Position numbers and translations under genes: made by a program. Below the pieces are notes generated by a model. It ran no database searches. It was not told the DNA's origin and was given only the letters and a program-made list of their open reading frames with translations. A stretch of DNA of 60,241 nucleotides, filler included, from Stramenopiles sp. TOSAG23-3 (Eukaryota): the NCBI GenBank assembly GCA_900128585.1. It is 6 parts of 6 records of this genome, joined end to end, with 100 filler letters (N's around TTAATTAATTAA, not from the genome) between each part and the next. Parts side by side here need not be neighbours in the genome. Positions count along the whole stretch, not along the records: positions 18,189 to 36,195 come from LT642435.1; 5 more parts are not named here. One strand, written 5' to 3'. Shown piece after piece: positions 4,717-36,295 of the stretch. Each line of letters begins with the position of its first letter. The stretch's first letter is position 1.

Positions 4717-4742
4717 CCACTATAAAGACTACCCAAGAGTCT

Positions 4743-12500: not shown

Positions 12501-15500
12501 ACAATGGAGTCATTCCAAACACTTGGAATCTAGTCAATATTCTGGGGGTTATGTGATTCCGACCGCCTCCAGGGGGGCCCATTGCTGATATAAACATTGT
12601 GTCTACGATGTTTCTGAAGGCGCTAGTCTTGCTGTCATACCATCCGCCATCGGTTATCGCTTGCCGAATGAGCTCAAGCGGGGGCTGGGCGCCATATGTT
12701 TCTACCATCGGCATGTTTAGATCGTCAATAAATATAATACATCTTTTATTAACTGGGGGACCATAAACATTTTTTCGTCGTTTATCAAGTTTGCTGTCAA
12801 TAATACTTTGCGTTGCTGCTGAGCTGGTCTGCGCCGAAAATCCGAGCGAGATGACTTTGAATTTTGATCTATCAAGATCCTTCATTATTTTAGCATTTAC
12901 GTAAATCGTTTTGCCGGTTCCAGTTGGACCAACGAATAACAAATGTTCCTGATGATCAATAGCACGGTTCAACAAGTAAGTGTAACGGACGGTATCAATT
13001 GTTGGAATTACAATTTCCGACACACGGGCAGTTTTCGGTATTTCAAATTTTTTGTCAATCAAATCTTGCCATTGTTGCCATTTCCCTTGGTCACTTTTAT
13101 CCCAAACACAGTCAAATACGCTCCCTTGACGGGGAAGCGGAGTGTGGATTTTTCTTTGCCGGGGATAACTCGCGTTTTCTCCCTTGATAAGAGAACGAAT
13201 AAAAGAATCAAACTTCTCTCTTCCAGCTGCATTGAGGATTCCACCAAAAGACCAGACAATAGAAAATATAACAATAGATTCGATCCAACTATTTACTTTT
13301 TTCTGATCCAACCTTTCTGTCACATTATCTTCTCTGGACGAGTCGAATTCGTCCATAAGATTCGCTGCCAACGACATTACAGTTTGGACAAGCATTGTGT
13401 GTTCCATTGGCACCATCAACTTGCCTTTCTGCACACGAAATATAAAATGTATACATGGAGGAATTAACCATGTAAACATTTGCTTCAGTACCTTCCGAAA
13501 GCCCTCATCTTTCGAAAGAAAGGCCGGCAGGGTATTCATCCATGAGACTAAGCGAGTTTCCATTCCAATATTTTCGGGCTCCAGATATACCATACCACAT
13601 CGACTCACAGTTGCCGGGCTAGCAGCGTCTAAGTCGAGAGTTTCAAAAATCATACTCATAGTCTCATTCATTTGAAGCATTTCTCCGGTCATCAAGCATA
13701 ACTTTTTATTATCGTCCAACACAGTGTTCATGTTTTCAATCCAGATGGCATCCACAGGACCATCAAAAAGAGTCCATTTTCTAGTTGCTTTTGTACTGGA
13801 GGCGAAAGCACGGTAGTAAATAGCTAAAACACCATCTGACCATTCATGAGTAATATCATCGAAGCAACCATACAGACGATCCATACTAATAGATTTTGGA
13901 TTTATCGTGGTTATCTCCGTTTCTAGCTCATGTTGGGGGTTAAGGGAGCAAGGCATTTTTCCTCGTTTGCACAAATCATTTAAACTTGAAGCGAGCACCT
14001 TCAGGCATGCTGTTTTCCCCCCTGATGCTTTCCCAACGATCATGAACCCATGGCGCACAACCATCATTTCATAAGTTTGAATAATTTTTTCAATAAATGC
14101 TTCGTCAGGCTGCAAATTTCTTGCCGCAATATTTTCATTTATGGATTCCATTAAGTCTGTATAATCAGGCGTAGGGAGCTGCACTCCAGGAAAAAGATCG
14201 GAAGTAATACCTGCAAACAGATCCAAATCTTGACTTAAGAATTTAGCTTTGTTCACATCGTTAATTGCTCGAAGAGCCACTACGTCTTCGCTTTCATCTG
14301 GAAATGGCCCGCAGCACAGACATGACCGCCCTCATACCATAATCGTAGTGGCTTTGTGAACTTAGCTGTTCAGAGCACAAAGTAAAAGTGGTAACAATTT
14401 TTGTGGCAAGGTCTCTCGAATTTCTAAATCCAAACGAGTAGAGGATAATTTCTGCAATCATAGCATAATCTGGAACCATCATTGCGACGGTTCGGAACAA
14501 TGATTTTAAGTTATCTGGTAATTCAGCACGCCCTGCGTACCCTGGGTTCATTGTGATAAAAACGTTGCAGGTCCACTTTAAAGTCAGTTCTGTTCCATAA
14601 AAGACAAACGAATTTTTTTTTGCGGCGACAGCCTGTTGAATTGTAGTAATTTGCTGAGCAACAACAGACAATACCTCTAGTACGATTCGGTTAAACTCGT
14701 CAAAACAAGCCCAGGCACCTGCTGATGCAAGCCCCTTAAAAAATTTAGCCATCGCAAGGTAATCCAAACCATCGGAACAATTGTAAACCACACACTGTCT
14801 AGCTAAAGCTTTTGACAAATCTTTTGTGGTTTCGGTTTTTCCAGTACCCGCCGGCCCTTCAGGAGCACCTCCATATTGCAAGTGTATTGCTCCCATCAGT
14901 GTCCGATAACAGCGGTCGGTCAGTGGGGTAATCACGAGTCTCCCAGAATTTCCTAAATATTCATAGCCGTATTCTAAATCGGAGACGATCATCCTGACAT
15001 GCAAGGTTCCCTCTTCCCAATAGTAACGTAGTTGACTTTGCCACCCAAAATCACTCGTTTTACCGACCTTTTGATCCCTAAGTATTGCTACAGTATCACG
15101 AGCATGCACATCCATAATGATCAAAGCAGACAGAGTTTTTCTGAGCATTTTTGTTAGTTTTCCCCGCACTAGATCTACAATATCATCAATATACCCAGTA
15201 AGTGTCTCTGTGTAATCAGATAGACTTTTGGCTCCATTCTCTTTGACTCCCTCTTCAAAGTACCTTGTCCAATAAAGTTGGCTGACGCATAGAACGACCT
15301 GACCAGGCCAATTTTGCACCCACTCAATACGTTCCTTCTGAGGGTAGTCTTCGATCCCCTTTTCGACGACATGTCGTACTGTTAACCGCATTACATCTTC
15401 GAGTTGCAAAAGCCATTTTTCAACAGCACCCTGTGCTTCAGCAGGGCTGACAGACTGTATCAGAGCAACCTCTTCTTTCTCTGCGGAGCCCATAGCTATA

Positions 15501-18088
15501 ACGTTGCCGTCCTCATTAAATTTAATGCTGTTCAAACCATCAAAACACTTTTTCAAGAACGGTTGAACCTTCGTCGGGTCTTTCGTTTCTGCAAGAATTT
15601 CTAAAAGCTCATCGTCACTAAGGAAGAAGAATCGTGGAAAGTGAATTCGTTTCACCATCAAATAATCACTCAGTCCTTTTTGTATAGTTTCTAAGAGTGA
15701 ATTGGCCTCTTCTAAGCGTTGAAGCAAACCATCGATTTTGTATACCTTTCGGCATCCAGGAGATTCATTGATTTGGTTCATCGTCAGTCTCCAACCACCA
15801 TCAACAGTGGAAAACTGTTCAGCTTCTTCCGGCATTTGGCGCACAATGTCTTCGGAGGTAAATATAGGCTCAAGGTATAACCAAGTTCCTTGAACCTGGA
15901 GCCACGCCTCCAGCAAACTGTCCATATACATTAAGTATTTTTCCCACTCCTTCATATCTTTTGCAAAAGGTTTGGCAAACTGAGAGCTTGACATTGTCTG
16001 CGTTTTCATTATTTGATCGTCAAGTATCATTTGAACTTCATCTATGGACGATCCTGTGACAATGTATGCCCCCGTATCTTTGTATGCTTTCGAACCGAAC
16101 TCGACACCCTCCCATTCTTCTTTCATTTTTTTCATGTTCTTTTCAATGGAAGATTCTTTTGTTGCAGATTCAGCACAGACCATAAGTTGCTTGACGTGTT
16201 TGTCAATGCCTTGGCCGAGTAGCTTTGAGAATGACGTGTGATCGTCGGGGGTTAAGGTAAAACCAATGACCGCACTCATCGCAGACCAATGCCTTGTCCT
16301 CAAGCCGGTATTGCATATTGCCGAAAGCAAATCGTAGTACTCTTTGAATGAAGAAACTCTTTCAAAAATTTCAGAGGCCAGTTTGGCGCACTTTTCCGAA
16401 TCTTCACTGAGGCTCTTAGATAGTTTTCTTACAGTTCGCCAAATGTCGTCCGCATCCTTTACAGTCTCTTCGTAGCTGAGATGATATATGGGTCCTTTCA
16501 TCCACTTTGCATAACTTCGTTGAAAACGACTCGCTGTTGACCATAGCAATAAATATGGCTCCAAAATCAACGACGCCTCTTCTAAAGTCGGGAACGAACT
16601 TGCCGAGAAGCCCAAACGCTCCTCCTCTTCGTTGATAGCAACCGCCTTTGCTTCGTAAGTGGCCACACGCGTCTTGAATTCTTCAACCTTTGCGTGCATT
16701 TCCCCAGCAGCTTTTATTGCTCCCGTGCGTGTGTCAACAAATCCACCCTGCTTATATAGCTCACTAACCTCATCGTGCAATTCTTGTACCTGATCTACGA
16801 ACGTGTTTCGCTCATCATTGAATTTCTCCTCCAATTTTTTCCTATCGTCTGCAATATCTACACGGGCCAGTTTAATGTGTTTACGAATATCTCTTCCCCA
16901 TGCAAATATGGCCCCAGCAGGAAACAGTACTGCTTCATCTACATCGTATTTATATTCGTACATGAAATCAACTTTGTCTTTTACAGCTCTGATTGCTTTC
17001 TTCTTTTGTGGCAAAGTTTCTTTGCTTAACTTTTTCATGTATGCCTCCGCATCTACAAGTTGATCCGACTTTCCCGACCTTTTATTTATAATTTCAACAA
17101 TTTCTTTGAACTCGTCCTTAATTCTAATGGAATCTTTTACGGTTTCGTGAGCTAGATGTTTCAACACTCGCTGGGCAAGGGTTTCGGATGTGCGATAGAG
17201 ATATGCATTTAGCACTGTGCAGTCAAGGCGCACCATGCGGGTGCAAGTAATGCCTTTCAACTTTTCATTCAGGGATTGCCCCATCTGTCTGTACTTTGCA
17301 ATTTCCACTCCGTACTCCTCTATTGTATGTTTTGCTTCAAAATATTTTTTCAGCTTTGGCCTATCGTTGATCAAAAAGTTGAACTCGTCGTAACATGAAA
17401 GAAAAGATTCTAGCGGTTCCATCGAGGTCGTTAGAACTTCGTTCAATCGGTGCCGCATGGCTCCGACGTCATGATCGTCCAGGTTAACGGTCATTAAGTC
17501 CATATTGGACTCAAAATTTAAAGACCCGATTCTGTGCTCTACCCTAGTTAGGCTATTTAAGCTTCGTGCCATGGTATCAAAAATGTCCAAGAGTTTCGTA
17601 TGGATTTCATCCCGCGATGTTTTAAATCGGAGGAAGGAATCTCTTGCGGGGGGTCTCTCAATGGCTTCAAAATACTCACTCTCTTCCTCACTTTCGTATT
17701 CACCATCAGGGTGTTCGACTATTACTTCTAGAAGCAGCGCACATCGCTGTTCAGCAGTTTCATCTGTTGAATATACAAACTCTTGCTCGCTGCTCGCTTG
17801 CTGCAAATCCACGGCAAATCGTTCAAAAAAGCTGACAAACAACTGAAGAGATTCTACAACTAATTCTCGCGCTTTTGTGGACATCAGAGTTGCAACCGAG
17901 TTAAAAAAACGCTTCAAGGTAATTTCAGGAACATTCACAAACATTCCATTCTTGTCTGCTTCTTGGAAAATTTCAATTACTTGCGGCATCCACTCGTCCA
18001 TAATTGTAGTCTTTACCAAGTTAATCCTTTGGAACTGAATGGTTGAAAATTCTTCTATCGTCATGGGCCGCCATTCCTGACTCTGGGC
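6508..18088 (-). CDS. Axonemal inner-arm dynein heavy chain (DNAH3/7/12-like), 5'-truncated by the contig edge, frameshifted at ~14305
   Basis: P-loops GPAGTGKT (AAA1), GKASGGKT, GPTGTGKT and GVGGSGRQS. Also CFDEFNR, WIENMNTVLDDNKKLCL, stalk/MTBD and C-terminal [23 protein letters not shown]. ORFs 14294-18064 and 6508-14280 are consecutive parts of one protein. Confidence 0.95.
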
Positions 18089-18188
18089 NNNNNNNNNNNN
18101 NNNNNNNNNNNNNNNNNNNNNNNNNNNNNNNNTTAATTAATTAANNNNNNNNNNNNNNNNNNNNNNNNNNNNNNNNNNNNNNNNNNNN
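18089..18188. other. Artificial contig linker (N-TTAATTAATTAA-N)
   Basis: Identical 100-nt spacer with stops in all six frames, present five times in the window. Confidence 0.98.
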
Positions 18189-18267
18189 AATGGTAACAAT
18201 ATTAGAACCCTTATTCAAATTTGACACCACAAAAACTTTCGTCAAACCAGGAAAAACTACCTCTTTA
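18189..18267 (+). repeat. Left terminal inverted repeat (inner 79 bp; rest missing at the contig edge)
   Basis: Exact reverse complement of 23714-23792. Confidence 0.92.
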
Positions 18268-18271
18268 CAAA

Positions 18272-19783
18272 ATGACTAGTCTAACTACCCCATCAAAAAA
18301 CAACATGGACGAAACTAACTATCAGACTCCAACACAACCTACAAACCCTGTAAAACAAGGTGATAGTGGTCGTCTACTTAAAATAGAGTTTAAACAAAGA
18401 AAAGTCTTAGCACAAAGAGATTTTATTAATTTTGTGGCAAATGAAAAACGAGTTCCAAAACACGTTTTAAACAAACGACCAAAAACAGTCGATATGTATG
18501 ATTGTTCTTCTATTGAACTAGAAGACGAATATGACGAAGAATACCTGAAAAGGTTGGCAGTAAAATGCAACTTACCACGAAAACCTGCGTTTTATGAATG
18601 GCGAGAAAGTATTTCCAACAGATATCTATGGCGCTTATTTTCAGAAAAAAGAAACGACGAAATATTCAGTCTTTTCCGAACGTGTAATGAAATACGTAAT
18701 CCACCTTCTAACGTCCCAGCAAAAAAGTGGTTTGAAAAAATTAAAACAATCAAATTAATTAAAATGAACGACAACTCCTTTAAGTTGGAAGGGTGCGAAG
18801 AAACAAAGAAAATGATACGTGGTTTTACACATCCACAGTCTTTGTTGCTTCTTCTAAAATCTTGTTTTGATACCCACGTTAACAATTGGAACGAATTTGT
18901 TGATAATTGCTTTAAACTTGAAACGTTTGATTTTAACGATTATAATTGGTTTGACTTTACATCACACGAAGAAAGAATAAAAACATTTCTTGATTGGTAT
19001 AAAACACACCAAAGAAAACCCAAAGCAAAACCTTATTGTAAAACCGAAGAAGACGATGTGGAGCATCGTTTTTATTATTGGTTACAATATAACAAAGACA
19101 AACAAGAAGAATCATTCAAGACAGCGTTTGATGAAAACTTTGGTAAAGGAGAATACGACAAAGCAAATAAAAAGCATAAGTTTTTTGTATTTAATCGAGA
19201 ATCTGACTTGTCAAAGTATTTTGATTGGTATAAAACACACCAAAGAAAACCCAAACGAAAACTAAATCGTAAAACCAAAGAAGAAGTATTTGAAAATGGT
19301 TTTTATGAGTGGTTGAATAGTCACAAACACAAAGAAGAACAATTCAAGACAGCGTTTGATGAATACTTTGGTGAAGGAGAGTACGACAAAGCAAATGAAA
19401 AACATAAGTTTTTTGTGTTTCGCCGATCAAATAACTTCTCAAAGTATTTTGATTGGTATGAAACACACCAAAGAAAACCCAAACGAAAAAAAAATCATAA
19501 AACCGAAGAAGAAGAAGTGGAAAATAGTTTTAAGATCTGGTTGCAAAATAACAGAAACAAAGAAGAACAATTCAAGACAGCGTTTGATGAATACTTTGGT
19601 GAAGGAGAGTACGACAAAGCAAATGAAAAGCATAAGTTTTTTGTTTTTAGAAAAAGAACAAAGAAACCTATCGAAGGTGCTATTGAGGAAAAAGTAGGAG
19701 AATGCAGTTGCTGTTTTTCCAATTCTTCACTTGTAAGGTTTGAATTTAACAATTGTTTTAAGTGCTTTTCTTGTTGCTTTTGA
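18272..19783 (+). CDS. Element-encoded protein with three ~76-77-aa tandem repeats (helicase-associated/HA-domain-like)
   Basis: Repeats FDWYKTHQRKPKRK...E..FY.WLQ.NK.KEEQFKTAFDEYFGEGEYDKANEKHKFFVF start at 18991, 19222 and 19450. ATG at 18272 lies just inside the TIR. The last ~35-45 aa look like antisense read-through. Confidence 0.7.
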   Translation: MTSLTTPSKNNMDETNYQTPTQPTNPVKQGDSGRLLKIEFKQRKVLAQRDFINFVANEKRVPKHVLNKRPKTVDMYDCSSIELEDEYDEEYLKRLAVKCNLPRKPAFYEWRESISNRYLWRLFSEKRNDEIFSLFRTCNEIRNPPSNVPAKKWFEKIKTIKLIKMNDNSFKLEGCEETKKMIRGFTHPQSLLLLLKSCFDTHVNNWNEFVDNCFKLETFDFNDYNWFDFTSHEERIKTFLDWYKTHQRKPKAKPYCKTEEDDVEHRFYYWLQYNKDKQEESFKTAFDENFGKGEYDKANKKHKFFVFNRESDLSKYFDWYKTHQRKPKRKLNRKTKEEVFENGFYEWLNSHKHKEEQFKTAFDEYFGEGEYDKANEKHKFFVFRRSNNFSKYFDWYETHQRKPKRKKNHKTEEEEVENSFKIWLQNNRNKEEQFKTAFDEYFGEGEYDKANEKHKFFVFRKRTKKPIEGAIEEKVGECSCCFSNSSLVRFEFNNCFKCFSCCF

Positions 19784-19983
19784 GCGTCTACCTGTTTCTT
19801 AAGTAAACTCTTAACATCTTTACGAAGTTCTTTGTCTGGTGTTGATTCGCTCTTGGCTTGTTTCCCAGCGGTCGTGAGCCTTCCTTCCAGCCACGATGCA
19901 TCGTTTTTATACTTATTAGGTGCGTTGTTGCCGAACACCACTTTGTAGGTATCTTGTAAAGTTTTTAATCGTTTCGTTGCCAT
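19495..19983 (-). CDS. Element-encoded coiled-coil protein, probably 3'-truncated
   Basis: ATG start and K/Q/E-rich helical N-terminal ~100 aa. The rest is antisense of the repeat gene. Confidence 0.5.
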   Translation of the reverse strand: MATKRLKTLQDTYKVVFGNNAPNKYKNDASWLEGRLTTAGKQAKSESTPDKELRKDVKSLLKKQVDAQKQQEKHLKQLLNSNLTSEELEKQQLHSPTFSSIAPSIGFFVLFLKTKNLCFSFALSYSPSPKYSSNAVLNCSSLFLLFCNQILKLFSTSSSSVL

Positions 19984-20739
19984 GTTGATAAGATGTTGAA
20001 ATTGTTTTGAGTTTTGTTTGTTTCCACTCTTCCTTTTCGTTTTCTTTCCTTCTTTTCCCTTTTCTCTTTTTACTAACTTTTTACAAAGAAATCCATTTAA
20101 CCTTTGGCATTTTTACTTTTCTAAAATAAATTGGGGAGAGAAAAGTTAATGCTATTTCACCCTATTCGATGTAAAACCAAAATAAATAATCTTCTTCTTA
20201 ATAACCCTACGACTCAGCTTCCTTGCTATTCCATGTTAACATAATTTTCTAACACTAACAGAAACGAGTATCCAAAGGTAAGAAGATAGTTTAACATAGC
20301 AATAGCACTACAGATTAATAGAATTAAACGAGTGGTGATTGATTAGATGCCCCCCTCTATTTTACTAGAAGACTCCTACCTCTACTACAGGATTTTCTTA
20401 ATACAATCGAGCGTTTCAGGACTTACTACAGGATTTCTTTAGTAAGATTCACCTCCTCCATTTTTACTAAAAAATTATTTTAGTAAGATTTGCTATGGTG
20501 TGTGTATGGACGAATTATTTAGTGTACGATACCATGTAAGAAATAGCACCAGTATACGATTGAATAAAATCCAATTTTCTTAATAAATCATTTGGTTTAG
20601 TAAGAAATCGATACAAAATCTTGCTAACCCCCATGATGCTTACCTGTTATTTTGGGTAGTAGGTTAATAGTATAGAATCATTAAATAAGAGGAAGATACA
20701 ATAGTTTTCTATGGTGCTATTATATATATAAAAAGAAAA

Positions 20740-22098
20740 ATGGAAAAAAGTAAAATTGACAAAGTGTTAACCGAAATTTATTACAATCCGTTGGAGGGTT
20801 TAGTCGGAGTAACCAATCTGTATAGAAAAGCAAAAAAGAAATTAAAGTCTATCACGATGAAACAGGTAAAGGAGTGGTACAAGCGACAATCAACAACCCA
20901 AATCCATTATCGAACCAAGAAGAAAATAAGTTATTTGCCTATCTTCTCTTACAAGTCAGGTGCATTTCAGATGGATCTGACGGAGATGAAACGGCTGAGT
21001 TCGAAGAACAAGGGGTTTAAATATATCCTCACCGCAATAAATGTAAATACCAGAAAATTGTACGCTTATAAATCCAAAACAAAAAATGCTTCTGCTATAA
21101 AACAATTGTTAAAACAGTTTAAAGACGATGTTATAAGTCATAATGAAACTTTCAAAACTAAGAACAGAGTAGATGTACCGTTAACCAGCGTGACGACGGA
21201 CGCTGGATCAGAATTTCTAGGAAACAAAAAGTGGTTTGAGGACAACGAGGTTCAGTTGATTATTGTCAACCCATCGAACAAAAAGTATACCACATCAAAA
21301 ATAGAACGAGTCCATCGCACTTTAAAGGAACTATTTAACAAATACTTTACTGCTTTTCAAACGGCAACATGGTATGATATTCTGGACGACTTTGTTTCCA
21401 ACTACAACAACCGCTACCATGCAACAATTAAACAAGAACCGAACCAGGTGGGTAAAAAGGAAGAGAAGGAAATAATAAAAACAGACTTTGCCCGTATGGT
21501 AAAGCATTTGAATAGAAGGATGTTTCAGGTTGGAGATAAAGTTCGAATACGAAATGTTAAAAAGATGTTTGAGAAAGGGGAGATTCTATACTCGACAGAG
21601 GTGTATACCGTAGCCGAAACCAACCCTCTTTTTACCTTTCGAGTAAGGGATGACGACGGAGATTTGCTTAAGAAGACCTTTAAAGATTATGAGTTGTTGT
21701 ATGTTGGGGAAGATGTTGAAAATGTTAAAAGCCGAACTGTGGTGGAAGAAGCAGATCGTGAAGCATCTAGCAGGAATCGTTTTGCCAGAACAGGTTTAGA
21801 TAGAAGCACTATTCGAAGCGACCAGATGAGAGCCAGTAGAAGGATAGGGGACGTGATGCGACCTAAGACAAAAAAGAAAGTGAAGCGGATAAAATGGAAG
21901 TTTAGAAGGGGTGATAGAGTTAAAGCCAAAGCCTCCTTTTTTAAAGACACGGAATTGTCTGAAATAAGACGAACTGGAAAGGTAAGCCAAACCATCAATT
22001 ACAAAGGAACGCCAGCGTATAATATAAAATGGTCTCGAGAACCCAAAGGATTATACTACGACCAAGAATCGGTAGAAAATGAACTAGAAAAAATATAA
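20740..22098 (+). CDS. Retroviral-like (rve, DDE) integrase of Polinton/Maverick/PLV type
   Basis: N-terminal IYYNP..G..G..NLY...VKEW..RQ. Catalytic triad FQMDL / TTDAGSEF / IERVHRTLK. Also YNNRYHATIK..P, FQVGDKVRI...FEKG...YSTEVYTV and an extra C-terminal SH3/chromo-like beta domain. No stops or frameshifts. Confidence 0.93.
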   Translation: MEKSKIDKVLTEIYYNPLEGLVGVTNLYRKAKKKLKSITMKQVKEWYKRQSTTQIHYRTKKKISYLPIFSYKSGAFQMDLTEMKRLSSKNKGFKYILTAINVNTRKLYAYKSKTKNASAIKQLLKQFKDDVISHNETFKTKNRVDVPLTSVTTDAGSEFLGNKKWFEDNEVQLIIVNPSNKKYTTSKIERVHRTLKELFNKYFTAFQTATWYDILDDFVSNYNNRYHATIKQEPNQVGKKEEKEIIKTDFARMVKHLNRRMFQVGDKVRIRNVKKMFEKGEILYSTEVYTVAETNPLFTFRVRDDDGDLLKKTFKDYELLYVGEDVENVKSRTVVEEADREASSRNRFARTGLDRSTIRSDQMRASRRIGDVMRPKTKKKVKRIKWKFRRGDRVKAKASFFKDTELSEIRRTGKVSQTINYKGTPAYNIKWSREPKGLYYDQESVENELEKI

Positions 22099-22117
22099 AT
22101 ATCATCGGTTATATATA

Positions 22118-22468
22118 ATGCCATTAATTAAACTCGATTCTTCAGCAACGAATGGAAAGCCAGAAAATTTTACCACAACCTTTAGCAATTTTGTTTTGGA
22201 AGACAATACTGAATACGAAGTAGCGATGGTTGCTTTAAGTATGAATTACAGTTACCCAAATGTTAGTGTTAAAAATGCAAACAACACCGTAGAATATTCG
22301 CCAAACAACGGTACAAATTTTTACACCCGTAAAGGAACGAAGCAAAAGGGCGGAGCAATATTTGGATTGGCGGCTTCAGTTTTAACGCCGATGGCTGTAG
22401 AAGTTATTGGGACTTCCATAGCCAAAAAGAAACCTGTCACTTCAGTAATGCGTGATTTTTTTAAATGA
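22118..22468 (+). CDS. Chimeric ORF: N-terminus of a PLV/Polinton minor capsid (penton) protein fused to a QKGG-hydrophobic core-protein-like tail
   Basis: aa 1-70 NFTTTF...L....EYEVAMVALSMNYSYPNV...NNTVEYS match the penton N-terminal pattern. Abrupt switch at ~22327 to RKGTKQKGGAIFGLAASVLTPMAVEVIG. Confidence 0.6.
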   Translation: MPLIKLDSSATNGKPENFTTTFSNFVLEDNTEYEVAMVALSMNYSYPNVSVKNANNTVEYSPNNGTNFYTRKGTKQKGGAIFGLAASVLTPMAVEVIGTSIAKKKPVTSVMRDFFK

Positions 22469-22503
22469 TTAACTTTTAAATATAAAATTTAATTATTATA
22501 TAC

Positions 22504-22632
22504 ATGTTTAAAAAGCATTTTGAAGATGCTATGAATCGGTTCGATAAGTTAAAAGCCTTGTTGCTACAATTGATTTCTATGCTTCAGAAAACTATTGCAT
22601 TTCTACAGCAAGTCGTTCGTGAAATTGAATAA
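22504..22632 (+). CDS. Small 42-aa amphipathic-helix ORF of the element (not in the ORF track)
   Basis: MFKKHFEDAMNRFDKLKALLLQLISMLQKTIAFLQQVVREIE*, preceded by TTATATAC-ATG like the two upstream genes. Confidence 0.45.
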   Translation: MFKKHFEDAMNRFDKLKALLLQLISMLQKTIAFLQQVVREIE

Positions 22633-23463
22633 TAATTTTGTCAATAAAGCGTTTAATGTTTTTAATTTTTTCTTCGCCATGACGATTCCTTTCTGACTGT
22701 AATCGTTATCGAACAGATTTTCTCCTTTTAAACTATCTGCCAAAGATTTTTTAAAAATTCTTATATTTCCATTTTCATATTTTATATCTTCCTTTATAGA
22801 TTGTATTAGTTTTTCGCCCTGAAGTTCTTCTTTGTCTAACAGTACAAGGCAATAAATACATTTGTTTGAACTATGGTTTGTTTTCACTCGCCATCCACAA
22901 CTGATACATCTATTGTTCTTTTCAAGAAACTCCCACCCTTCCTTTTCTTTTTTTTGTATCAACATGGATGTAATTTTTTGTGGGTTTACAAAATCCTGAA
23001 ATATCTGTTTTTCATAGTCGTAGTCCTGAATAAAATTTGTTGGTTCTTCTAGATCGAAAAATTTGTCTAACATTCTATCATTCCAGACAAGACAATATAT
23101 ACATTTGTTTGAAATATGCTTTGTTTTCACTAGCCTTCCACAACTGATACATCTATTGTTTTTTTTAAGAAACTCCCACCTTTTCTTTTCTGTTTTTTGT
23201 ATCGGCATGCATGTAATTTTTTGTGGCTTTATAAAATCCTGATATATATGTTTTTCATAGTCGTCTTTTAAAAAATTTGTTGGTTCTTGTTCTGTTTCTT
23301 CGTCTGTCTCTTCGTCTATTTCTATGTCGCTTTCATCAGAGTCTGTTTCATAATACAAAATAGGTTTCGTTTCTCTTTTCATTCTTTTCCTACACACATA
23401 ATATTTTTCCTCTTCATGTGCATGTATAGAAAAACATTTTCTGTAGATTCTACTCTTCTTCAT
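22603..23463 (-). CDS. Element-encoded protein with two 80-aa repeats, each ending in a CxxC-x12-CxxC zinc finger
   Basis: EPTNF...YEK.I.QDF..PQKIT.M.IQK.EK..WEFL.KNNRCISCG..VKT.H.SNKCIYCLV occurs twice with a DNA period of 240 nt. Acidic tract near the N-terminus. Confidence 0.7.
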   Translation of the reverse strand: MKKSRIYRKCFSIHAHEEEKYYVCRKRMKRETKPILYYETDSDESDIEIDEETDEETEQEPTNFLKDDYEKHIYQDFIKPQKITCMPIQKTEKKRWEFLKKNNRCISCGRLVKTKHISNKCIYCLVWNDRMLDKFFDLEEPTNFIQDYDYEKQIFQDFVNPQKITSMLIQKKEKEGWEFLEKNNRCISCGWRVKTNHSSNKCIYCLVLLDKEELQGEKLIQSIKEDIKYENGNIRIFKKSLADSLKGENLFDNDYSQKGIVMAKKKLKTLNALLTKLLFNFTNDLL

Positions 23464-23695
23464 GTTTTTCTTTGTACTTGTTAACTTGGTGTTGTAACTC
23501 TTTGTTTATATCTCGTAACGATTTGTTTGCCTCTTCTAATGCGTCGTTTACCTCTTGAAATGTGTCGTTAACTACGAGGGCCTTGTTAAGTGCTTTTTGT
23601 GTTGTGTCGTTAACTACGAGGGCCTTGTTAAGTGCTTTTTGTAACTGTCTGTTATGCCTCTGTAGAGTCTCAATAAAGGTTTCTTCTTCTTGCAT
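23450..23695 (-). CDS. Element-encoded short coiled-coil protein
   Basis: MQEEETFIETLQRHNRQLQKALNKALVVNDTTQKALNKALVVNDTF... with a 42-nt internal duplication. ATG at 23695 lies just inside the right TIR; the ORF track extends it into the TIR. Confidence 0.55.
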   Translation of the reverse strand: MQEEETFIETLQRHNRQLQKALNKALVVNDTTQKALNKALVVNDTFQEVNDALEEANKSLRDINKELQHQVNKYKEKHEEE

Positions 23696-23713
23696 CTTCG
23701 TCCTAAAAAAAAC

Positions 23714-24234
23714 TAAAGAGGTAGTTTTTCCTGGTTTGACGAAAGTTTTTGTGGTGTCAAATTTGAATAAGGGTTCTAATATTGTTACCATTTAAAAAAA
23801 GTTCTAAATTTATGAAATAAACTCGAGCGAAAGTTAGTTCATTCTTTTTTATTTTAAGACGGCTTGCCGTCTTAAAATAATAATTGTCCGTCCGTCTCAA
23901 TTTTTTAAAAAAAATTGTTGGGTTTGTGACCTGTTACCGTCTTGTTATTTTAACTACCGCTTCTTTGTGACCTAATTCATAACTCGAGCGAAAGTTGATT
24001 TTTTTTAAAATGAAATAAGACCATTCCCCGTGCTAATTCTATATATTTATTTTTGAGCTCAGAAGTGGTAGTTGAAAAAAAAAGAAATTTGGATTTGTTA
24101 AGGTTTTTTTAGGAAAGAGATTTTAAGGTTAAAATATTTTGTGATGGTATACCGTGCTAAAATGAAATATTTTTTTTAAATTTTTGGATTTGAGATTTTA
24201 CCAAAAATCCCCCCATTACTACTCCATTACTACT
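23714..24234 (-). repeat. Right terminal inverted repeat (~520 bp inferred)
   Basis: The inner 79 bp are confirmed by the left copy. The outer limit is inferred from 5'-AGTAGTAATGGAGTAGTAATGG on the minus strand. Contains a hairpin at 23849-23880 and 16-bp direct repeats at 23820 and 23981. Confidence 0.65.
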
Positions 24235-24556
24235 GATTAAATAAATTTGATCTTTAAAATAATTGTTTTAAAGAGTGATTTATTAATTTGAGGATGCAAT
24301 TTAAATGAAAAATGCTCGCTCCGCCGCCTACGGCCTCTTTTTCTTCCCTTCATATTTTTACTAACATAAAAAAAAATTTATTATTATTATTTTTTTTTTC
24401 ATTCACCCGGCTGGATTGTTTCCATGTCGTGTTGTTGTGACCAAATAAACATATACGCACAGCCCAAAGAGATAATTTTTCTCTCCTCCAGTCCAACGTA
24501 GGAAAATCCTATGGGCATTGCTTGACACCAACCTCTGCAAGTGTTAGTTCTTTGCC

Positions 24557-25099
24557 ATGGACGCTGGTGATTTTGACGATGGCACACTTCTGGAGTGGTG
24601 GGTGAGTTTGGGGGCGTCTTGCAAATGGCACAGCTGTTCACCGACGTGGCCTTGGGAGTGGAAGATTGTTGCACCTCAAGGGTTCGGGCGCTACCTTGCG
24701 CTGTCTTACCAGATTCCCGTGAACAGCGGCACTCATTTTGTAAATATAGAAATTCATATCGTGTTTCACCCAGTGTACCAAGTTCCTACTCTGTACTTTA
24801 ACATCTACCGGCCAAACGGAACTCGTGTGACACCGAATGAGGGCAAAGAGTTTCTGAGTTTTTTCCCGGAGAAAGACTTCGGCTCTTTCGTGACGCAGGC
24901 CGAGCATGTGTGCGCCCAGAAACCCTTTCTTTTTATACACCCGTGCCGAACGCACGAGTTTATGCAACAGTTCAAAACGAGCGGGGCGACGTCTGGGGCG
25001 CACCAGTACCTCTTGACTTGGTTCAACGTGTACGGAGCATTTTTGAAACTGGGCGTACCCCCAGCGTTTTTTCAGTCAGCGCTTCAAGGGCTGCAGTGA
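24557..25099 (+). CDS. ATG10: Autophagy E2-like conjugating enzyme ATG10
   Basis: HIVFHPVYQVPTLYFN, VTQAEH, catalytic FIHPCRT and YLLTWF..YG motifs. Confidence 0.88.
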   Translation: MDAGDFDDGTLLEWWVSLGASCKWHSCSPTWPWEWKIVAPQGFGRYLALSYQIPVNSGTHFVNIEIHIVFHPVYQVPTLYFNIYRPNGTRVTPNEGKEFLSFFPEKDFGSFVTQAEHVCAQKPFLFIHPCRTHEFMQQFKTSGATSGAHQYLLTWFNVYGAFLKLGVPPAFFQSALQGLQ

Positions 25100-25301
25100 G
25101 CAAAACCCACCTCTGTGGAATTGAAAAGCTTTTGGGGATTGCCCGGAGGGGTAATTTGAAGTGTTGCAATAGAAAGGGCAGAAACAATAATAAATGTAAA
25201 TATACTCTTACGTCTTTGCTACCAACACCAAACTCTAAACTTATTGATTGCGCACGCGTAGATTTTTCTGTGCTGGCGACTCTGCGGCCTCCCGGGCCTT
25301 C

Positions 25302-27569
25302 TTACTGTGCCTCGTGGATTGGGCGCCCAACGAGGAAGCTAAAGCTGTTCGCCGATTCGCCGTACGTGCGAGCTCCGTGCTGCGCCATGGACATCCTATA
25401 CGTCGGCATTCTAGCAGTGTCCGTGGGAAGTTTGTGCCTTATCTGCATTTCCTGCAAAATCTTGTCAGCCGCAAAGGATTTGGAAAATGCGGGACGAGTC
25501 AGGTTCGGGTAAAAGTTTAAATCACCGTCCCGGGGCAGCCATCTGCTTTTCCCGATGAACGGTTCCACATCCTCTTCCATGACTTCCTCCGGGGGAAGGC
25601 CGCGACCGTCACGTTTGATTTTATGGTCTTCGTCTTCCATGGCCCTCTCTGCGACAGACACTGGGGCTGGCATGGTGCCCATGTGTGGGTACCACCCAGA
25701 CTCCATTTCGCGCCCTTGGGCGTTGAGTATTCGAGGTTTCCCGGTCGCGGTCCAAGGCGTTTGGCGCCTCCCATTGGACGAGCCAAACGTTTCTGCCGTG
25801 CTGCCGCTGCAGGTACTGTCTCCGCGGGACGGCGCATTCAGGGACCCGAAGTATTTGCCGCGGTGCAAGTTTCTAAAGTCGTCGGCTGCATGCTGTTTCG
25901 CGACCATTTTGTCGAAATCATTTACGTCTTGCTCCAACAGAAGCGCCCGGTAATTTTTGTACAGCAAGGCCCGCCCGCGCCGCGACAACGGGCCGTTGGG
26001 GATTTTGCTCTTCGGCAAATCCCGGGGAGAGCCCTGCGGGGACGCCGTCGCCCCCGCGGTGGACCCGAACGAACCATGGTGCGCCGACATCTCGGCCCTG
26101 GACGACGAACTCGTCGGATCTCGAAAGCCAAGGTCGGTCACGATTCCCTGGTTGTCCATAACGATGGGCGCGAACCGCCCCCGTGGCGTCTTCATAACAG
26201 CAGGGGTAGACGAGCGAGGCCCTTGGCCAGCGCTGCTCAGCAGGCTCCCACGGCTGGCCATGCGCATCCCAGCGCTCGGGGTGGTGGCCATCCGCAGGCG
26301 GCCCATCGTGGTGGTCGGGGCGGACGCGGGCACCAAGTCGTTCGGATCGAAGACAGCGTTTATCATGTTTCCCGTCATGGACGCCGACCGCCGAACCCCC
26401 CCCCCGTTCAACCCCCCCCCGTTCCTCCCAAACCCGACGGGAACGGTCGCACCGCCCCCCGTGCTGACCCTTCGGCCTTTCCTTCTCGACTTGGCGGCTG
26501 CCGTGCTCAACCGTTCGCTACTGCCCATGGCGATGTCGTCCCCACCGAACTGCATGGTCTCCTCCCCTTCCTCAAAACCATTCAACGTTTGCCCGGAGAG
26601 CGACGCCGTGTACAGGGCCGCGGCGTCCGTCGGGGCACGGGATATCTGGTGCAGCGTGCGCTGCAAATACGCCGCCATTTGCCCACCGGAGACCAGATCG
26701 TAGTCTTGCAGGATTCGCATGATCCTGTCTGCGGCATCCGCCCGTTCTTCCAGAACTTTGGATATTCGACTCCGCCGGGCCCTCGCGTTGTTTCTATCTT
26801 TGCCTTCCCCAATAATCCTAATCTCGCGCGCAATCTCCGCCTTTTGCTCCGTCTCCAGCAAGTTCAGCAAATGCTCGAACCTGTCAATTTCTTGGGCCTG
26901 CGCGGTGGTCTGCTGCTTCACCCAGAGGCCTTCCATCTTCAGCGTGTTTGCGACCTGCTTGGTTTGGCCCACGGCCAACTCGTTCTTTTTCTTCCGTATT
27001 TCCACTTCCTTCTCGTTTGCAGCGTTCGCTATATAATTCCCGGACGTCCTGTCAAACGCATAGCGCTGCTTGTCCGCGCTGGCATAGTGGATCTGGCGCG
27101 CCACCAGCTCTTCCGCCAGCCTGTCCTCTTTTCGCAACCGTTTGTGGTTTTTCTCTACAAAGTAGTCCCGGGTCTCGTCGTACACCGTGTCCGGGTAGTA
27201 CTTTTTATCGATCCGTTTCGGGGGCAAAAATACTTTCGAGTACGAGCTCGGGCGATTGAGTTCGCGCTTTATGATTTCCGTCAATATTTTCAAAACTTTT
27301 CGAAGCGTAACTTTGTCGTCCAGCGCCGACGTGGACCCGTGCAACCCGCTCCCACCGCCTTCGCCGACCGAGGACAAAATAGACCCGGCCGTCGACAGCG
27401 CGCTCCGCCTCGAAGAGTGCGACGTTCCAAGGCCACCCCTGGACAGTTGCCGCGCACGGGCCTCTATACCCCTTGCCTTGTTCCTAGCGTCCTGCACGGC
27501 CCGTTCCTGGGCTTTCTCTACCCCCTCGGCACCCCAAAAGAATGCACCCGCCGAGGCCGACTTTCTCAT
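25302..27569 (-). CDS. Hypothetical protein, coiled-coil plus disordered G/S-rich regions
   Basis: Long GC-rich ORF (track 25302-27680). Likely ATG at 27569 (MRKSASAG). No recognised domain. Confidence 0.7.
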   Translation of the reverse strand: MRKSASAGAFFWGAEGVEKAQERAVQDARNKARGIEARARQLSRGGLGTSHSSRRSALSTAGSILSSVGEGGGSGLHGSTSALDDKVTLRKVLKILTEIIKRELNRPSSYSKVFLPPKRIDKKYYPDTVYDETRDYFVEKNHKRLRKEDRLAEELVARQIHYASADKQRYAFDRTSGNYIANAANEKEVEIRKKKNELAVGQTKQVANTLKMEGLWVKQQTTAQAQEIDRFEHLLNLLETEQKAEIAREIRIIGEGKDRNNARARRSRISKVLEERADAADRIMRILQDYDLVSGGQMAAYLQRTLHQISRAPTDAAALYTASLSGQTLNGFEEGEETMQFGGDDIAMGSSERLSTAAAKSRRKGRRVSTGGGATVPVGFGRNGGGLNGGGVRRSASMTGNMINAVFDPNDLVPASAPTTTMGRLRMATTPSAGMRMASRGSLLSSAGQGPRSSTPAVMKTPRGRFAPIVMDNQGIVTDLGFRDPTSSSSRAEMSAHHGSFGSTAGATASPQGSPRDLPKSKIPNGPLSRRGRALLYKNYRALLLEQDVNDFDKMVAKQHAADDFRNLHRGKYFGSLNAPSRGDSTCSGSTAETFGSSNGRRQTPWTATGKPRILNAQGREMESGWYPHMGTMPAPVSVAERAMEDEDHKIKRDGRGLPPEEVMEEDVEPFIGKSRWLPRDGDLNFYPNLTRPAFSKSFAADKILQEMQIRHKLPTDTARMPTYRMSMAQHGARTYGESANSFSFLVGRPIHEAQ

Positions 27570-28148
27570 CCTCGCACCTGCCTGCTGCACCCACACCGAA
27601 CCAAAAACTAGACCACTACCACCCACTAACTCACTCAACTCAAGAATACTTTCAAAACGCCTTGGAGAAGGGTCATGCAAAGTTTTTTCTTCTTCTTCTC
27701 GTCTTGACTTGCTACTTTCTTCAACACGTCTTCTTTCTACAATAGAATAGTAGATAAATGATTTTCTTAATTCGTTATTATTATTACTACTACTACGAGC
27801 GAGAGTATATTAAAAAAAAAGTTGTTCTAAAACTTTTTTATTTTAATATTGTTGAGTGATAATATTAAGGAATTAAACCAACATTATACAACCAACATTT
27901 AAACCAACATAATACAAATACAATTGTACACGCATTGAAAATAGTTAAACCATTATCCTTAACGTTTCGAAGTAGAATAACGGTTATGGAATGAAGAATG
28001 AATGGGATTGATGAAGAGAATTGTTGTCCACCAAAGAGTCGGGAACGGAGAGACAGTTTGCACGTTGTTCATTTACTTACGGATTATCCACCACCTTCAG
28101 TTTATATATGTAAGCAACCTGTTTCTTAAAGTTATATTTAATTTTTTT

Positions 28149-29759
28149 TTAGTTTGACCCTTTGCATCTCAAAATGCCGCAGGGCTGTTTCAAACAACCC
28201 CATTGATCTTTCTCTTCGTTGAGTTCACGCTCGCACCCTTCCTTGAGCTCGTTCAACGGCGGGCATTTGATGGTGGGGCACTTGGCTGCTGCTCCTGTAA
28301 TTGCAATCCCCGCCCTCCCCCCCGTACTACTCCGCCCGCCCGTCGCCCCGGTGGAAAACACGTTCCGGGCTTCGGCATCTTCTAATTGCTCAGCTTCCGG
28401 GCCACTGGCCCCACTATCTTCGTCTTCCTCGTCCTTTTTCGTTTTATTCTCGGCCGAGCGCGCCAAGGTCACCTCCTCGTCTTCCATCATGTTTTTAAAG
28501 CCCTCGGGCAACGGCTTCTGGTTCTTGCTGTACTTGGGGTCGCCTAGTCGACACAAGTGGTAGCTTTTGTGCGCGTCCGCGGCGGCCTTACTAATGACGC
28601 CGCAGTACTGCTCGGTGGACTTGAGCTTGTCCAAATGCGGCTGCACCGCTTTCTTCATCTTCCCCAACTGCGTGTTCTCCGCTTTCCTCAACGCTTCCAC
28701 CGAGGCGTCCTTGGTGACCTTGGCGTCCCGGGTGGCGTTTTGCGCCGCATGGCAACCCTTTCTAGCGTGGCGCAAGGCGCGCAGTATGCCTGGCCCCGCA
28801 ACCTCGGCATGTTCGGCTTGCATTTCAAACTTGCCCCACTTCTCGTCGGCCTGGCTCTTCGCTTTCAACGCACGGTGGACGTCTTTCTCCAACCCCTCGA
28901 TGTCCATCCCTTTACTAATGTACCACTTTTCCCCAGACGACAAGGCTCCCATTTGGGCGTTCGTCAGGTGCTCCTTCGCGGCCGACAAGGTCTTTGTCGC
29001 CTTGGCCGCGACCGTCTTTGCCTTGTCCGCGTACGCCTCTAGGGTCAGGATGGGGCCCGCCATGTGCTCCCAATGGGCCTTCTTCAGGCACGCGTCCTTC
29101 TCCGCTTCGACGGCCTCCTCGTACTCCTGCACGGCCACCGAGTGGTTCTTGACCTTCTCGTCGGAGACGCCCAGCCCCCCCGTGAACCAGGCCTCGAACG
29201 GCGAGAGTTTCGTGGTTTTCCTTATCTTGGCCTCGATGTTCTCCGCCGCTTTGTCGCACAAGCTTTCCTTCTCCATGGCCTCCTTCCACGCAAAATAGTC
29301 CGACGCGCACCTGTGCTTGGAGAGGCACTGCCAGCGGTGGTACCCCTCCGGGATGTGCTCCACGTCCTCCGGTAGGTACGGCTTTGACACCATCCCGTGC
29401 TTCTCGTCGAAGCACTCGTAATCACCCGCGGTGACCATGACGACGCCGGCGTGGTCCGCCGAGAGGTTCGGGGTCATCCGCTCCCGAAGGCAGGAAGTCG
29501 TCGGGCAGACCAGGAACATTTCTGGCATAGGCTTGTGGCGCTTCATTCGCTGCTGTTCGTGGCCGTTTCCAAAGTCCTGGCGCATCCCCGTTATGCTGTG
29601 GGGGGCGGGCATGCCTAGCAACGGGGCCAGGGGCTTACCCAGGTCCGTCGCGTTGCCGTCGCCGCGGCGGGAGGCGCGTAGCCGGGAGGCACGCGCACTA
29701 ACAAAAACTATGGCTAACAAGATAGCCGCAAACGTGGCGGCAGCGCTCTGGAGTTTCAT
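28149..29759 (-). CDS. Secreted hypothetical protein (signal peptide, helical repeats, Cys-rich C-terminal module)
   Basis: MKLQSAAATFAAILLAIVFVSARA signal peptide, A/K/E coiled coil, and C-terminal CPTIKCPP...GC...D.WGC....CGILRC. Confidence 0.75.
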   Translation of the reverse strand: MKLQSAAATFAAILLAIVFVSARASRLRASRRGDGNATDLGKPLAPLLGMPAPHSITGMRQDFGNGHEQQRMKRHKPMPEMFLVCPTTSCLRERMTPNLSADHAGVVMVTAGDYECFDEKHGMVSKPYLPEDVEHIPEGYHRWQCLSKHRCASDYFAWKEAMEKESLCDKAAENIEAKIRKTTKLSPFEAWFTGGLGVSDEKVKNHSVAVQEYEEAVEAEKDACLKKAHWEHMAGPILTLEAYADKAKTVAAKATKTLSAAKEHLTNAQMGALSSGEKWYISKGMDIEGLEKDVHRALKAKSQADEKWGKFEMQAEHAEVAGPGILRALRHARKGCHAAQNATRDAKVTKDASVEALRKAENTQLGKMKKAVQPHLDKLKSTEQYCGVISKAAADAHKSYHLCRLGDPKYSKNQKPLPEGFKNMMEDEEVTLARSAENKTKKDEEDEDSGASGPEAEQLEDAEARNVFSTGATGGRSSTGGRAGIAITGAAAKCPTIKCPPLNELKEGCERELNEEKDQWGCLKQPCGILRCKGSN

Positions 29760-34230: not shown

Positions 34231-34435
34231 GGACGAAACACGATGGACTCGGTCCCAAAAATGTGTGGGTGTGGTGTGGAAAGCGTGCGTGTAATAAAAT
34301 TAACCCTAAAAAAACAATTTAATTGTTACAAGATAAATTCAAAACGAGCGACGTACGCGTGTGCTGCGTTAGCTTATGCAAATTCTTGGTCCCCCTTTAC
34401 GTATAGATACGAGAGGCCCCGCCCCCCAACCCCCC

Positions 34436-35416: not shown

Positions 35417-36195
35417 TTGTGAAGCAACTAATGGTTCAATATGGTTCGTTTTCCTCGTGCGTGGTTTTGAATAGGAAAATAGTTTAAAATAGGAAATCGT
35501 TACGCTTACACAACGCTTTCAATTTGAAAAAGATTTCTCTTAATCTTGTTTTCATTATTTTTCTTTTCTTGAATTGTTGAATTGTGAATATAATAATAAT
35601 AATAAAAAAAATATTATAATAATAATCACAATATGGGGAAGAAGATATCCCTCTCCTAGGCATAACAGACAGCTGAACTGTCTGTTAATTTATATAGAAT
35701 GAACTATACTTAGAGTATACGTGGTATACGTGGTGGTAAATTATTTCGACCTCAAAATTAACAGACAGTAAAACAGACAGCTGAATGCTATTGCACCCTA
35801 GATCAATTAAGTATTTAGGTGTCCTACGAGGTGTGTTCATCTTTTATTATTATATAATTCTTTGTGTTATTTTGGATTTGTTTTCGCGCCACGGACACTG
35901 AACACTTTATAACAGCTGTCTACGATAGCAATTAACTTATTAAAAAAAACATCGGTCGTGTTTTTATTTTTCTAAAACGAGGGACCTATTAGCATAGGAA
36001 GAGCATTAAGTATTTTTTTAACTAAATTAGACGATTATTTCGTTAGCGATTATAGCCATTATAGTACATATGAAGTATCCAATCTTTTAGATACATTATT
36101 TACATGTTGAAAATGGATATTATTCTTTGAAAATACTGGGTTACCAGATTTGATATGTATTATTAAACATACAAAAAACTCAAGGATCGACTCTT

Positions 36196-36295
36196 NNNNN
36201 NNNNNNNNNNNNNNNNNNNNNNNNNNNNNNNNNNNNNNNTTAATTAATTAANNNNNNNNNNNNNNNNNNNNNNNNNNNNNNNNNNNNNNNNNNNN
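36196..36295. other. Artificial contig linker
   Basis: N-TTAATTAATTAA-N spacer. Confidence 0.98.

Follow-up and report, generated by a model that had tools for sequence, protein, structure and literature searches.

The window analysed here, a 60,241-nucleotide (nt) stretch of DNA from the uncultured marine protist Stramenopiles sp. TOSAG23-3 (assembly GCA_900128585.1), contains on its plus strand an open reading frame (ORF) of 116 amino acids (aa) at positions 22118–22468, within the remains of an endogenous polinton-like virus (PLV). In this ORF the beginning of a penton gene runs in frame into the end of a second gene, which encodes a small virion-type protein. The first-pass annotation had described a fusion of two different structural-type genes at this place, with a switch immediately after the residues NFYT. 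Its coordinates, length and frame were reproduced in our analysis, and the position given for the switch was exact, since tblastn places the boundary, to the codon, at 22327/22328. The ORF and the sequence directly before it are made up as follows.

22099–22117, plus strand: retained upstream region of the penton gene; an AT-rich motif of the TATATAATG type immediately precedes the start codon.
22118–22327, plus strand: the first 70 codons of the gene for a penton (a single jelly-roll vertex protein of the minor capsid class); the remaining 182 codons are missing.
22328–22468, plus strand: codons 14–59 plus the stop codon of the gene for a virion-type protein of ~60 aa, fused in frame.
22343–22357, plus strand: Q-K-G-G-A (aa 76–80), a candidate maturation-protease site with putative cleavage at G-G/A.
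22352–22408, plus strand: hydrophobic segment (aa 79–97), transmembrane-like and not amphipathic.

Each half of the ORF is almost identical to part of an intact protein from another source. Residues 1–70 match the intact 252-aa protein P0012 at 69 of 70 positions (98.6%), while residues 71–116, when compared by eye, are the same as residues 14–59 of the intact 59-aa protein P0069. The E-values range from 1e-29 to 1e-35 for the N-terminal half and from ~1e-9 to 1e-14 for the tail, so the similarity of both halves is far beyond chance. When the retrieved homologues were aligned to the window using tblastn, penton-family residues 1–70 fell at 22118–22327 and small-protein residues (P0010, aa 16–63) at 22328–22465. 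The same search with all retrieved proteins found no further penton or small-protein piece anywhere in the 60-kb window, and no remnant of penton residues 71–252 is present within it.

Protein searches with the whole ORF separate the two halves. In a word-indexed search, 11 matches were of similar length, nine of them on the N-terminal ~60% or less and two on the tail alone; seven longer matches (237–252 aa) were all restricted to the N-terminal 60%. An exhaustive HMMER search of 1.84 billion representatives gave 32 matches at E ≤ 0.001, with 23 on residues 1–72, six on residues 69–116 and three to long tandem-repeat proteins (P0032, P0034 and P0039). The last three are taken as compositional matches on a reading of P0034 and P0039, and the match to P0039 is a T/S/V/A-rich repeat unit that is 28–34% identical. 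No protein related to both halves was found in libraries of 5.8 billion clusters and 1.84 billion representatives, and neither Pfam nor PHROGs assigned the 116-aa ORF to a family. The two halves thus match separate families, as the first-pass annotation had proposed; penton similarity of the first half is present, and the searches returned no full-length homologue of the 116-aa ORF from an intact virus, either of which outcomes could have gone against that proposal.

The first half comes from a family of intact proteins of 250–252 aa (~251 aa). An alignment of 18 family members (243–265 aa) was used to model P0012 with AlphaFold, and the resulting beta-rich fold was predicted with good confidence (pLDDT 90.7, pTM 0.79). 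Comparison of this model with BFVD using Foldseek gave 52 matches at E ≤ 0.001, the best being a protein of Tetraselmis viridis virus S1 (M4QZG2, 1.5e-15). Adomavirus LO5 and the 'minor capsid' proteins of mavirus, Qinghai Lake virophage and several giant viruses came next, and pentons of adenoviruses and MELD viruses were also among the matches. Against the PDB there were 41 matches at E ≤ 0.001, led by the mavirus penton (6g41/6g42) at 1.4e-9 and followed by adenovirus penton bases, the Sputnik penton (3j26_N) and the PBCV-1 capsid. Sequence identity to the named pentons is 7–17%. Pfam searches with the 18 members returned nothing meaningful, and a sequence search of the PDB with the penton profile gave a weak ThreeFoil match alone (E 0.007). 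On the strength of the predicted fold, a single jelly roll in P0012 that matches both solved and predicted pentons, the first parent is a penton, which bears out the earlier assignment of aa 1–70 to the minor capsid class. A complete jelly roll of ~250 aa is a different matter: the window ORF holds only residues 1–70, that is, 70 of 252 penton residues and five of the 18 strand segments (of at least three residues) in the model.

The second half also belongs to a family of its own. A profile search with six small proteins retrieved 61 proteins at E ≤ 0.01, mostly of 55–66 aa, from marine and other metagenomes, and no member carries a name. The tail of the window ORF, being identical to residues 14–59 of the member P0069, is thus the end of a separate small basic protein with a hydrophobic helix, as had been claimed. 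For the family alignment 55 of the 61 proteins were used, and P0011, P0021, P0024, P0025, P0043 and P0097 were left out as extended, chimeric or truncated. The members share one layout, in which a basic head is followed by an invariant Gln, a glycine motif and a conserved hydrophobic segment. The head is AT-hook-like, with a median of 24 residues, 13 Lys/Arg and 0 Asp/Glu, and contains GRP or GPK in 45 of 53 cases. The hydrophobic segment reads G-L-A-A-S-V-L-T-P-x-A-[IV]-[ED]-V-I-G and is followed by K-K-K-P-V...D-Y-F-K. Its maximal 19-residue Kyte-Doolittle mean is 1.77 and its helical hydrophobic moment 0.1–0.2.

The glycine motif invites comparison with the sites of adenain, the adenovirus maturation protease, for which passages in PMC7998265 give the motifs (M/I/L)XGG-X and (M/I/L)XGX-G. 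After the invariant Gln, 50 of the 55 aligned members carry x-G-G-x or x-G-x-G, so that one Gly is fixed and the second either adjoins it or follows one residue later. A scripted count of the five residues from the Gln gave 33 QxGG-x, 17 QxGx-G and three others, with two members missed by the pattern; by eye these two are QRGGA and QKGGA, and one of the three others is a register shift of QRGS-G. The position corresponding to P4 is the invariant Gln rather than the Met, Ile or Leu of the adenain consensus. Passages of PMC4246237 mention a non-consensus QRGF-G site, in an adenovirus terminal-protein precursor, that adenain cuts, though probably with lower efficiency. When the profile of the ~60-aa family was compared with the small proteins encoded at two related loci (L003 and L001, described below), no significant similarity emerged, and the likeness to the 'GG + hydrophobic' proteins of those loci is one of layout only. 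A PDB profile search with the family returned a ribosomal protein alone (E 0.78), and a look-up of P0069 in the ESM Atlas gave a best score of 0.84, under the level that counts. Five members run against Pfam, which we take to hold an adenovirus pX family, gave no adenovirus-family match at E ≤ 10, and no similarity to a Pfam family or a PDB chain emerged overall.

The first-pass annotation had called the tail protease-cleavable and pX-like. The two-mode glycine pattern in 50 of 55 members speaks for this description, while the Gln at P4 and the absence of a pX match in Pfam speak against it. For the parent protein, a protease site at this position is a plausible reading, argued from the analogy with adenain sites. 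A highly basic, putatively DNA-binding segment such as adenovirus pMu/pX has is present in the parent family, and the pX-like analogy is for that family a reasonable working model rather than proof of membership. pMu is described in a section of PMC7998265 as a basic precursor that is cut at two adenain sites into three pieces. Other 'pX-like' domains, at the C-termini of the adintovirus PLA2X and GasderminX (gasdermin-like) proteins, are reported in passages of PMC8502044, which also report a protein VI-like gene in the MELD viruses of protists. The small-protein parents resemble the adenovirus pMu/pX proteins and the adintovirus 'pX-like' domains treated in those parts of PMC7998265 and PMC8502044 in being small and in having a basic segment, a Gly-Gly or Gly-x-Gly motif and a hydrophobic peptide. 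They differ from pMu/pX in showing no sequence similarity in the Pfam and PDB profile searches, in the Gln at P4 and in having one candidate site instead of two. The chimera differs further, since it is without most of the basic head: it keeps QKGG-A and the helix together with the basic remainder RKGTKQK, and the AT-hook-like part is lost.

Two other proteins carry the same small-protein tail behind unrelated sequence. In P0043 it is joined to integrase residues (window equivalent 21622–21717), and in P0025 to a fragment of an aminotransferase (PF00155). It seems that the small-protein tail often survives breakage or that its gene lies near a frequent breakpoint. Both fusions fit repeated accidental breakage, of which protein searches detect only the in-frame cases.

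The junction was also looked for in sequencing runs. The stretch 21900–22700 is complete in two runs of one sample (S1), which is the likely source, and is present to 91% in a run of a second sample. In the latter (run X3 of sample S2, same organism), a 681-nt contig covers 21708–22388 with 0 differences and spans the junction, extending 320 nt to one side of it and 61 nt to the other. Since this contig is from a second sample, the junction is not an artefact of one run. Similarity to the intact penton DNA of a related locus (L002) extends as far as 22326, and 22328 is the first base of the small-protein match; on the penton side, then, nothing points to shared sequence of a length that could cause a mis-join in an assembly graph. 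We take the junction as genomic. It was found only in runs X1–X3 of one organism. In another run (X4), a marine metagenome contig of 191 nt covers 22141–22326 with 93% identity (13 differences), and its own last base lies one position before the junction. This end could reflect a branch point that the assembly graph shares with relatives or, at a depth of 2, mere chance.

The element around the chimera lies in the second of six contig pieces that make up the window, the pieces being separated by five artificial linkers. As the pieces were artificially joined, neighbours across a linker, such as a dynein gene and the viral block, are not physically linked. The second piece spans 18189–36195, directly after the linker that ends at 18188. 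Its first ~6.2 kb are AT-rich, with a GC content of 0.31–0.38 (~0.32) compared with 0.54–0.63 over 25001–27000, and its remainder carries eukaryotic host genes (ATG3-like, gamma-tubulin-complex and Rad51-like). A viral block of ~5.6 kb lies between the arms of an inverted repeat and holds six ORFs, including the chimera. The features of the piece and its surroundings are given below.

18089–18188, 36196–36295, 54257–54356, 56253–56352 and 58248–58347: N44-TTAATTAATTAA-N44 linkers.
18189–18267: left arm of the inverted repeat, 79 nt, perfect, 100% complementary to 23714–23792; it begins at the first base of the contig piece.
18221–19783, plus strand: 520-aa ORF with three 228-nt tandem repeats; no family match.
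19495–19983, minus strand: 162-aa ORF, N-terminal 94 residues 84% conserved in L002.
20740–22098, plus strand: intact rve-type integrase of 452 aa (Pfam rve and PHROG transposase).
22603–23463, minus strand: 286-aa ORF with a 243-nt internal duplication and CxxC pairs, N-terminal 112 residues 78% conserved in L002.
23450–23791, minus strand: coiled-coil-like ORF of 113 aa, first 26 codons within the inverted repeat.
23714–23792: right arm of the inverted repeat, 79 nt.
23793–24400: AT-rich tract with GC ~0.32 up to ~24400, from the repeat arm to the first host gene.
24557–25099: ATG3/ATG10-type autophagy enzyme, host gene on the same piece.
31177–34230: gamma-tubulin complex component, host gene on the same piece.
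34436–35416: Rad51-like protein, host gene on the same piece.

Because the left repeat arm starts exactly at the first base of the contig, it has probably been cut short by the assembly, and the left host junction would then lie outside the contig. One possible reading of the tract at 23793–24400 makes it the outer portion of a longer terminal repeat, the left copy of which would lie past the contig start. The integrase matched Pfam rve at 7.4e-5, under the curated cut-off, and a PHROG transposase at 2e-8; it is 97% identical to its counterpart in L002 and 60% to that in L001. The tandem repeats of the 520-aa ORF (18990–19649) are 79–92% identical to each other, and the duplication in the 286-aa ORF (22844–23264) is 90% identical, with C-x-x-C pairs in each copy; like the 520-aa ORF, the 286-aa ORF had no family match. 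The L002 copy of the 113-aa coiled-coil-like ORF is 100% identical over aa 49–113. A penton remnant, an rve integrase, a 79-nt inverted repeat, a shift in GC content and host genes on the same piece thus all occur here, and these are the features by which we recognize an endogenous PLV. Proteins of L001 and L003 used as queries found no major capsid protein (MCP), ATPase, protease, polymerase or small-protein match in the window at E ≤ 0.01. The rest of the element is a decayed remnant that has kept its inverted repeats, an intact integrase and a few orphan genes.

The loci L001, L002 and L003 were found in a single metagenome scan, and none of them is an intact element of the window's own lineage. 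L001 encodes a penton that is 59% identical. Its integrase is on one strand, and the other strand carries the penton, a 153-aa protein and a 432-aa ORF in the position of the capsid gene (no Pfam match), with a polymerase-like fragment beyond it that likewise has no Pfam match. In L003, where the penton is 32% identical, the gene order is A32-like ATPase, penton, a 101-aa protein, double jelly-roll capsid protein (Pfam, 5e-22), two small proteins of the '...GG + hydrophobic stretch' type, an adenain-like protease, a PLA2-like protein and an rve integrase. The protease matched Peptidase_C5 at 3.5e-4, with 20.8 bits against a cut-off of 21.3. No adenain-like protease is present in the window; this distant relative is the only place where one was found. 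In both L001 and L003 a single small gene separates the penton from the double jelly-roll capsid gene, or its position, just downstream. A morphogenetic module with a double jelly-roll MCP, absent from the window, is therefore found in relatives of the penton family, which sit in full modules, at least the distant one with a protease. The ~60-aa family is not represented in L001–L003. Scans of IMG/VR with the chimera, the integrase, the penton alignment, the small-protein alignment and the L001 capsid protein returned no relatives, nor did two scans of prokaryote genome contigs.

L002 is a near relative of the window element, with DNA that is 94% identical to it over 19702–22285. Its penton is broken in a different way: codons 1–56 lie beside the integrase and codons 57–202 are inverted ~220 nt away. 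The small-protein tail is absent from L002. Between the window and L002 there are 13 synonymous and two non-synonymous codon differences in penton codons 1–56, and 59 synonymous and 13 non-synonymous differences in the integrase. This excess of synonymous changes, together with the different breaks, argues that the two copies diverged under purifying selection and were then damaged independently; the copies presumably diverged as viruses.

Both expression and folding of the chimera were considered. Window and L002 agree in all of the 50 nt that precede the start codon. This stretch ends in the TATATAATG-type motif, also present ahead of further ORFs in the window element, L001 and L003, so the chimera probably keeps the promoter of the penton. 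More broadly, an AT-rich motif resembling TATATA(A/T)AATG stands directly upstream of many ORFs, in the window at 20719–20742, 22105–22120 and 22490–22507 as well as at gene starts in L001 and L003, and is possibly a shared promoter or initiator signal. Metatranscriptome contigs from runs X17 and X18 map only to 21882–22233, that is, to the 3′ end of the integrase and the start of the penton; the X18 contig has 12 differences and so comes from a relative. None of the metatranscriptome contigs lies on 22234–22700, the nearest coverage ending at 22233. With homologues of both halves aligned, AlphaFold predicted the chimera at pLDDT 45.8 and pTM 0.24. In this model 54 of residues 1–55 are below pLDDT 50, compared with ~89–94 for the same residues in the full-length model, and the tail forms a low-confidence helix at 81–102. 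As evidence the model is weak, but it is consistent with a penton fragment that cannot fold alone.

We believe that a recent deletion in a decayed endogenous PLV of this protist gave rise to the chimeric ORF, which is most likely non-functional, and we assign this reading a probability of roughly 0.85. An internal deletion in a PLV integrated in the nuclear genome of the protist would have produced the ORF as a by-product. Illegitimate recombination would have placed codon 14 of the gene for the ~60-aa protein directly behind codon 70 of the penton gene, and the join would be in frame by chance. The ORF accordingly begins at the native start of the penton, behind the penton's upstream region, and ends at the native stop of the small gene. 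That both halves remain ~99–100% identical to intact genes in marine metagenomes points to a recent event. The surrounding element has decayed as well and carries none of the genes for capsid, packaging, protease or replication. Since only five of 18 jelly-roll strand segments are kept, the product is most likely a non-functional polypeptide and, if made at all, would be a short membrane-prone protein. The data establish the chimera, the identity of its two parents, the junction in two samples, the absence of capsid genes and the tie to host genes, whereas a deletion as the mechanism, its recent date and the lack of function are what we infer from them. The first-pass annotation went further and held that the deletion had removed the capsid module. 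The element is indeed without an MCP, ATPase, protease and polymerase, yet this deletion is no more than a possible cause of their loss; if the penton and small genes were adjacent, the deletion could have been as small as ~0.6 kb.

Several observations weigh against this reading. Expression is possible, given the open frame and the intact upstream region of the penton, and the tail keeps the conserved Q-K-G-G-A motif and the helix. The poor AlphaFold model of the 116-aa chimera is only weak evidence of non-function. That there was one deletion, and how large it was, we infer as well. Both samples with the junction are from one study, the element begins on the left where a contig ends, and, according to passages of PMC10120064, short-read assemblies give endogenous viruses a more degraded appearance than they really have.

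That last group of points leads to the alternative that the junction is an artefact, either a mis-join in a short-read or single-cell assembly or a chimera of amplification, and that at the true locus both genes are intact. The window is made of short contigs, with the element starting exactly at the end of one; the source runs are very small (11–16 million letters of contigs), which suggests amplified low-input DNA; the inverted penton segment in L002 is a pattern that amplification chimeras also give; and assembly artefacts in endogenous viruses are documented in part of PMC10120064. Nevertheless, random chimeras should not recur across samples, and the X3 contig from another sample crosses the junction with 0 differences. 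Moreover, with penton-side similarity to L002 ending at 22326 and the small-protein match running from 22328, the penton side gives no hint of a long shared stretch, and we regard an artefact as very unlikely. That intact viruses could instead carry the 116-aa protein as a natural and conserved short gene, rather than as a product of fusion, has next to no chance of being correct. Homologues to one half only account for all 11 and all seven matches in the word-indexed searches and for 29 of 32 in the HMMER search (the other three being repeat proteins), both halves occur within longer or separate intact genes, and nothing was found in favour of such a gene.

The remaining alternatives accept the fusion and give it a role. 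The chimera might be functional and expressed and might interfere when a related PLV or a helper virus assembles or matures its virions, with the penton fragment brought to the assembly site by the tail or the whole acting as a decoy substrate for the maturation protease. Its frame is open, with a native start, an upstream AT-rich motif and a native stop; the conserved QKGG-A motif and hydrophobic helix are kept; and the element has inverted repeats and an intact integrase. Against such a role, one random deletion in three is expected to be in frame, and protein searches find in-frame cases only. Only 70 of 252 penton residues are left, with no modelled fold, the junction occurs only in runs of one organism, no protein related to both halves exists among the 5.8 billion clusters and 1.84 billion representatives, and the AT-hook head of the small protein is lost. 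We find no support for the interference idea, proposed by the first-pass annotation, and consider it distinctly improbable. A more elaborate version, argued by analogy and very improbable in our view, would make the ~60-aa parent the PLV counterpart of pMu/pX, served by a protease that prefers Gln at P4, and the chimera a decoy or poison and thus a host antiviral factor derived from a capsid gene. An AT-hook DNA-condensing peptide would be freed from a membrane-seeking peptide at Q-x-G-G/x or Q-x-G-x/G, and the chimera, keeping the penton promoter, the site and the helix, would be made when related viruses reactivate and would hit maturation or vertex assembly.

The preferred reading, a deletion chimera in a decayed PLV, places the locus among systems that are partly familiar. 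The parent penton family has the single jelly-roll vertex fold of PLV, virophage and adenovirus pentons (M4QZG2, 6g41/6g42, 3j26_N, adenovirus penton base and LO5). Unlike these, the window ORF has residues 1–70 only, and the parent shows 7–17% identity and no Pfam match. Fragmented and degraded PLV and virophage insertions in protist genomes are described in passages of PMC10120064 and PMC12220804, and the present element resembles them in its AT-rich block, inverted repeats, integrase, capsid-gene remnant and contiguity with host genes. It differs from typical PLVs, for which a passage in PMC12220804 gives 14–40 kb, in measuring ~5.6 kb between the repeat arms. It differs from the described degraded PLVs in having an in-frame chimera of two genes, both of whose intact parents can be named.

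Viruses also give rise to defective interfering genomes, a concept of general virology. Like such genomes, the element is a deletion derivative that keeps its terminal repeats. Unlike them, it shows no sign of replication, packaging, gain in copy number or interference, and the junction was seen in the runs of one organism only.

The finding is of low to moderate interest, being decay of the usual kind for an endogenous virus, and the chimera itself probably has little biological importance. The main value of the finding is that of a clean worked example of endogenous PLV decay in an uncultured marine protist, with both intact parents named and the breakpoint fixed to the codon. Comparison with a related copy shows that the same capsid gene was lost through distinct rearrangements in each, whereas the integrase has remained open. 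A useful by-product is an abundant, unnamed marine small-protein family with a conserved Gln-x-Gly-Gly/x motif between a predicted DNA-binding head and a hydrophobic peptide. If the motif is a maturation site, it would offer a testable handle on virion maturation in a PLV lineage without a known protease or isolate.

Some minor features of the relatives and of the window were also recorded. The small protein encoded directly after the penton has two canonical adenain-type sites in L001 (2125–2586), namely M-M-G-G/N near the N-terminus and L-S-G-K/G six residues before the C-terminus, and two in L003 (2581–2886), I-I-G-G/S near the N-terminus and I-A-G-S/G six residues before the C-terminus. 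This two-site layout recalls what we take to be that of adenovirus pVI, with its released C-terminal peptide, a comparison that draws in part on passages of PMC4246237. At L003:5156-6137 the Peptidase_C5 protease adjoins the phospholipase-A2-like protein, which is of the parvovirus type (7.3e-9), directly upstream of the rve integrase. Beside the related element in L002, a 966-aa ORF (4177–7077, minus strand) has a weak match to RVT_1 (E 0.0029), a Y-V-D-D motif and an N-terminus that we presume to resemble the GIY-YIG nuclease motif; possibly this is a retroelement that has inserted beside the viral relic or within it. Elsewhere in the window, a dynein heavy chain (6508–18064, minus strand) is split into two long ORFs of 2590 and 1256 aa that lie 13 bases apart, a gap that a short intron, a frameshift or an error of assembly could each explain.

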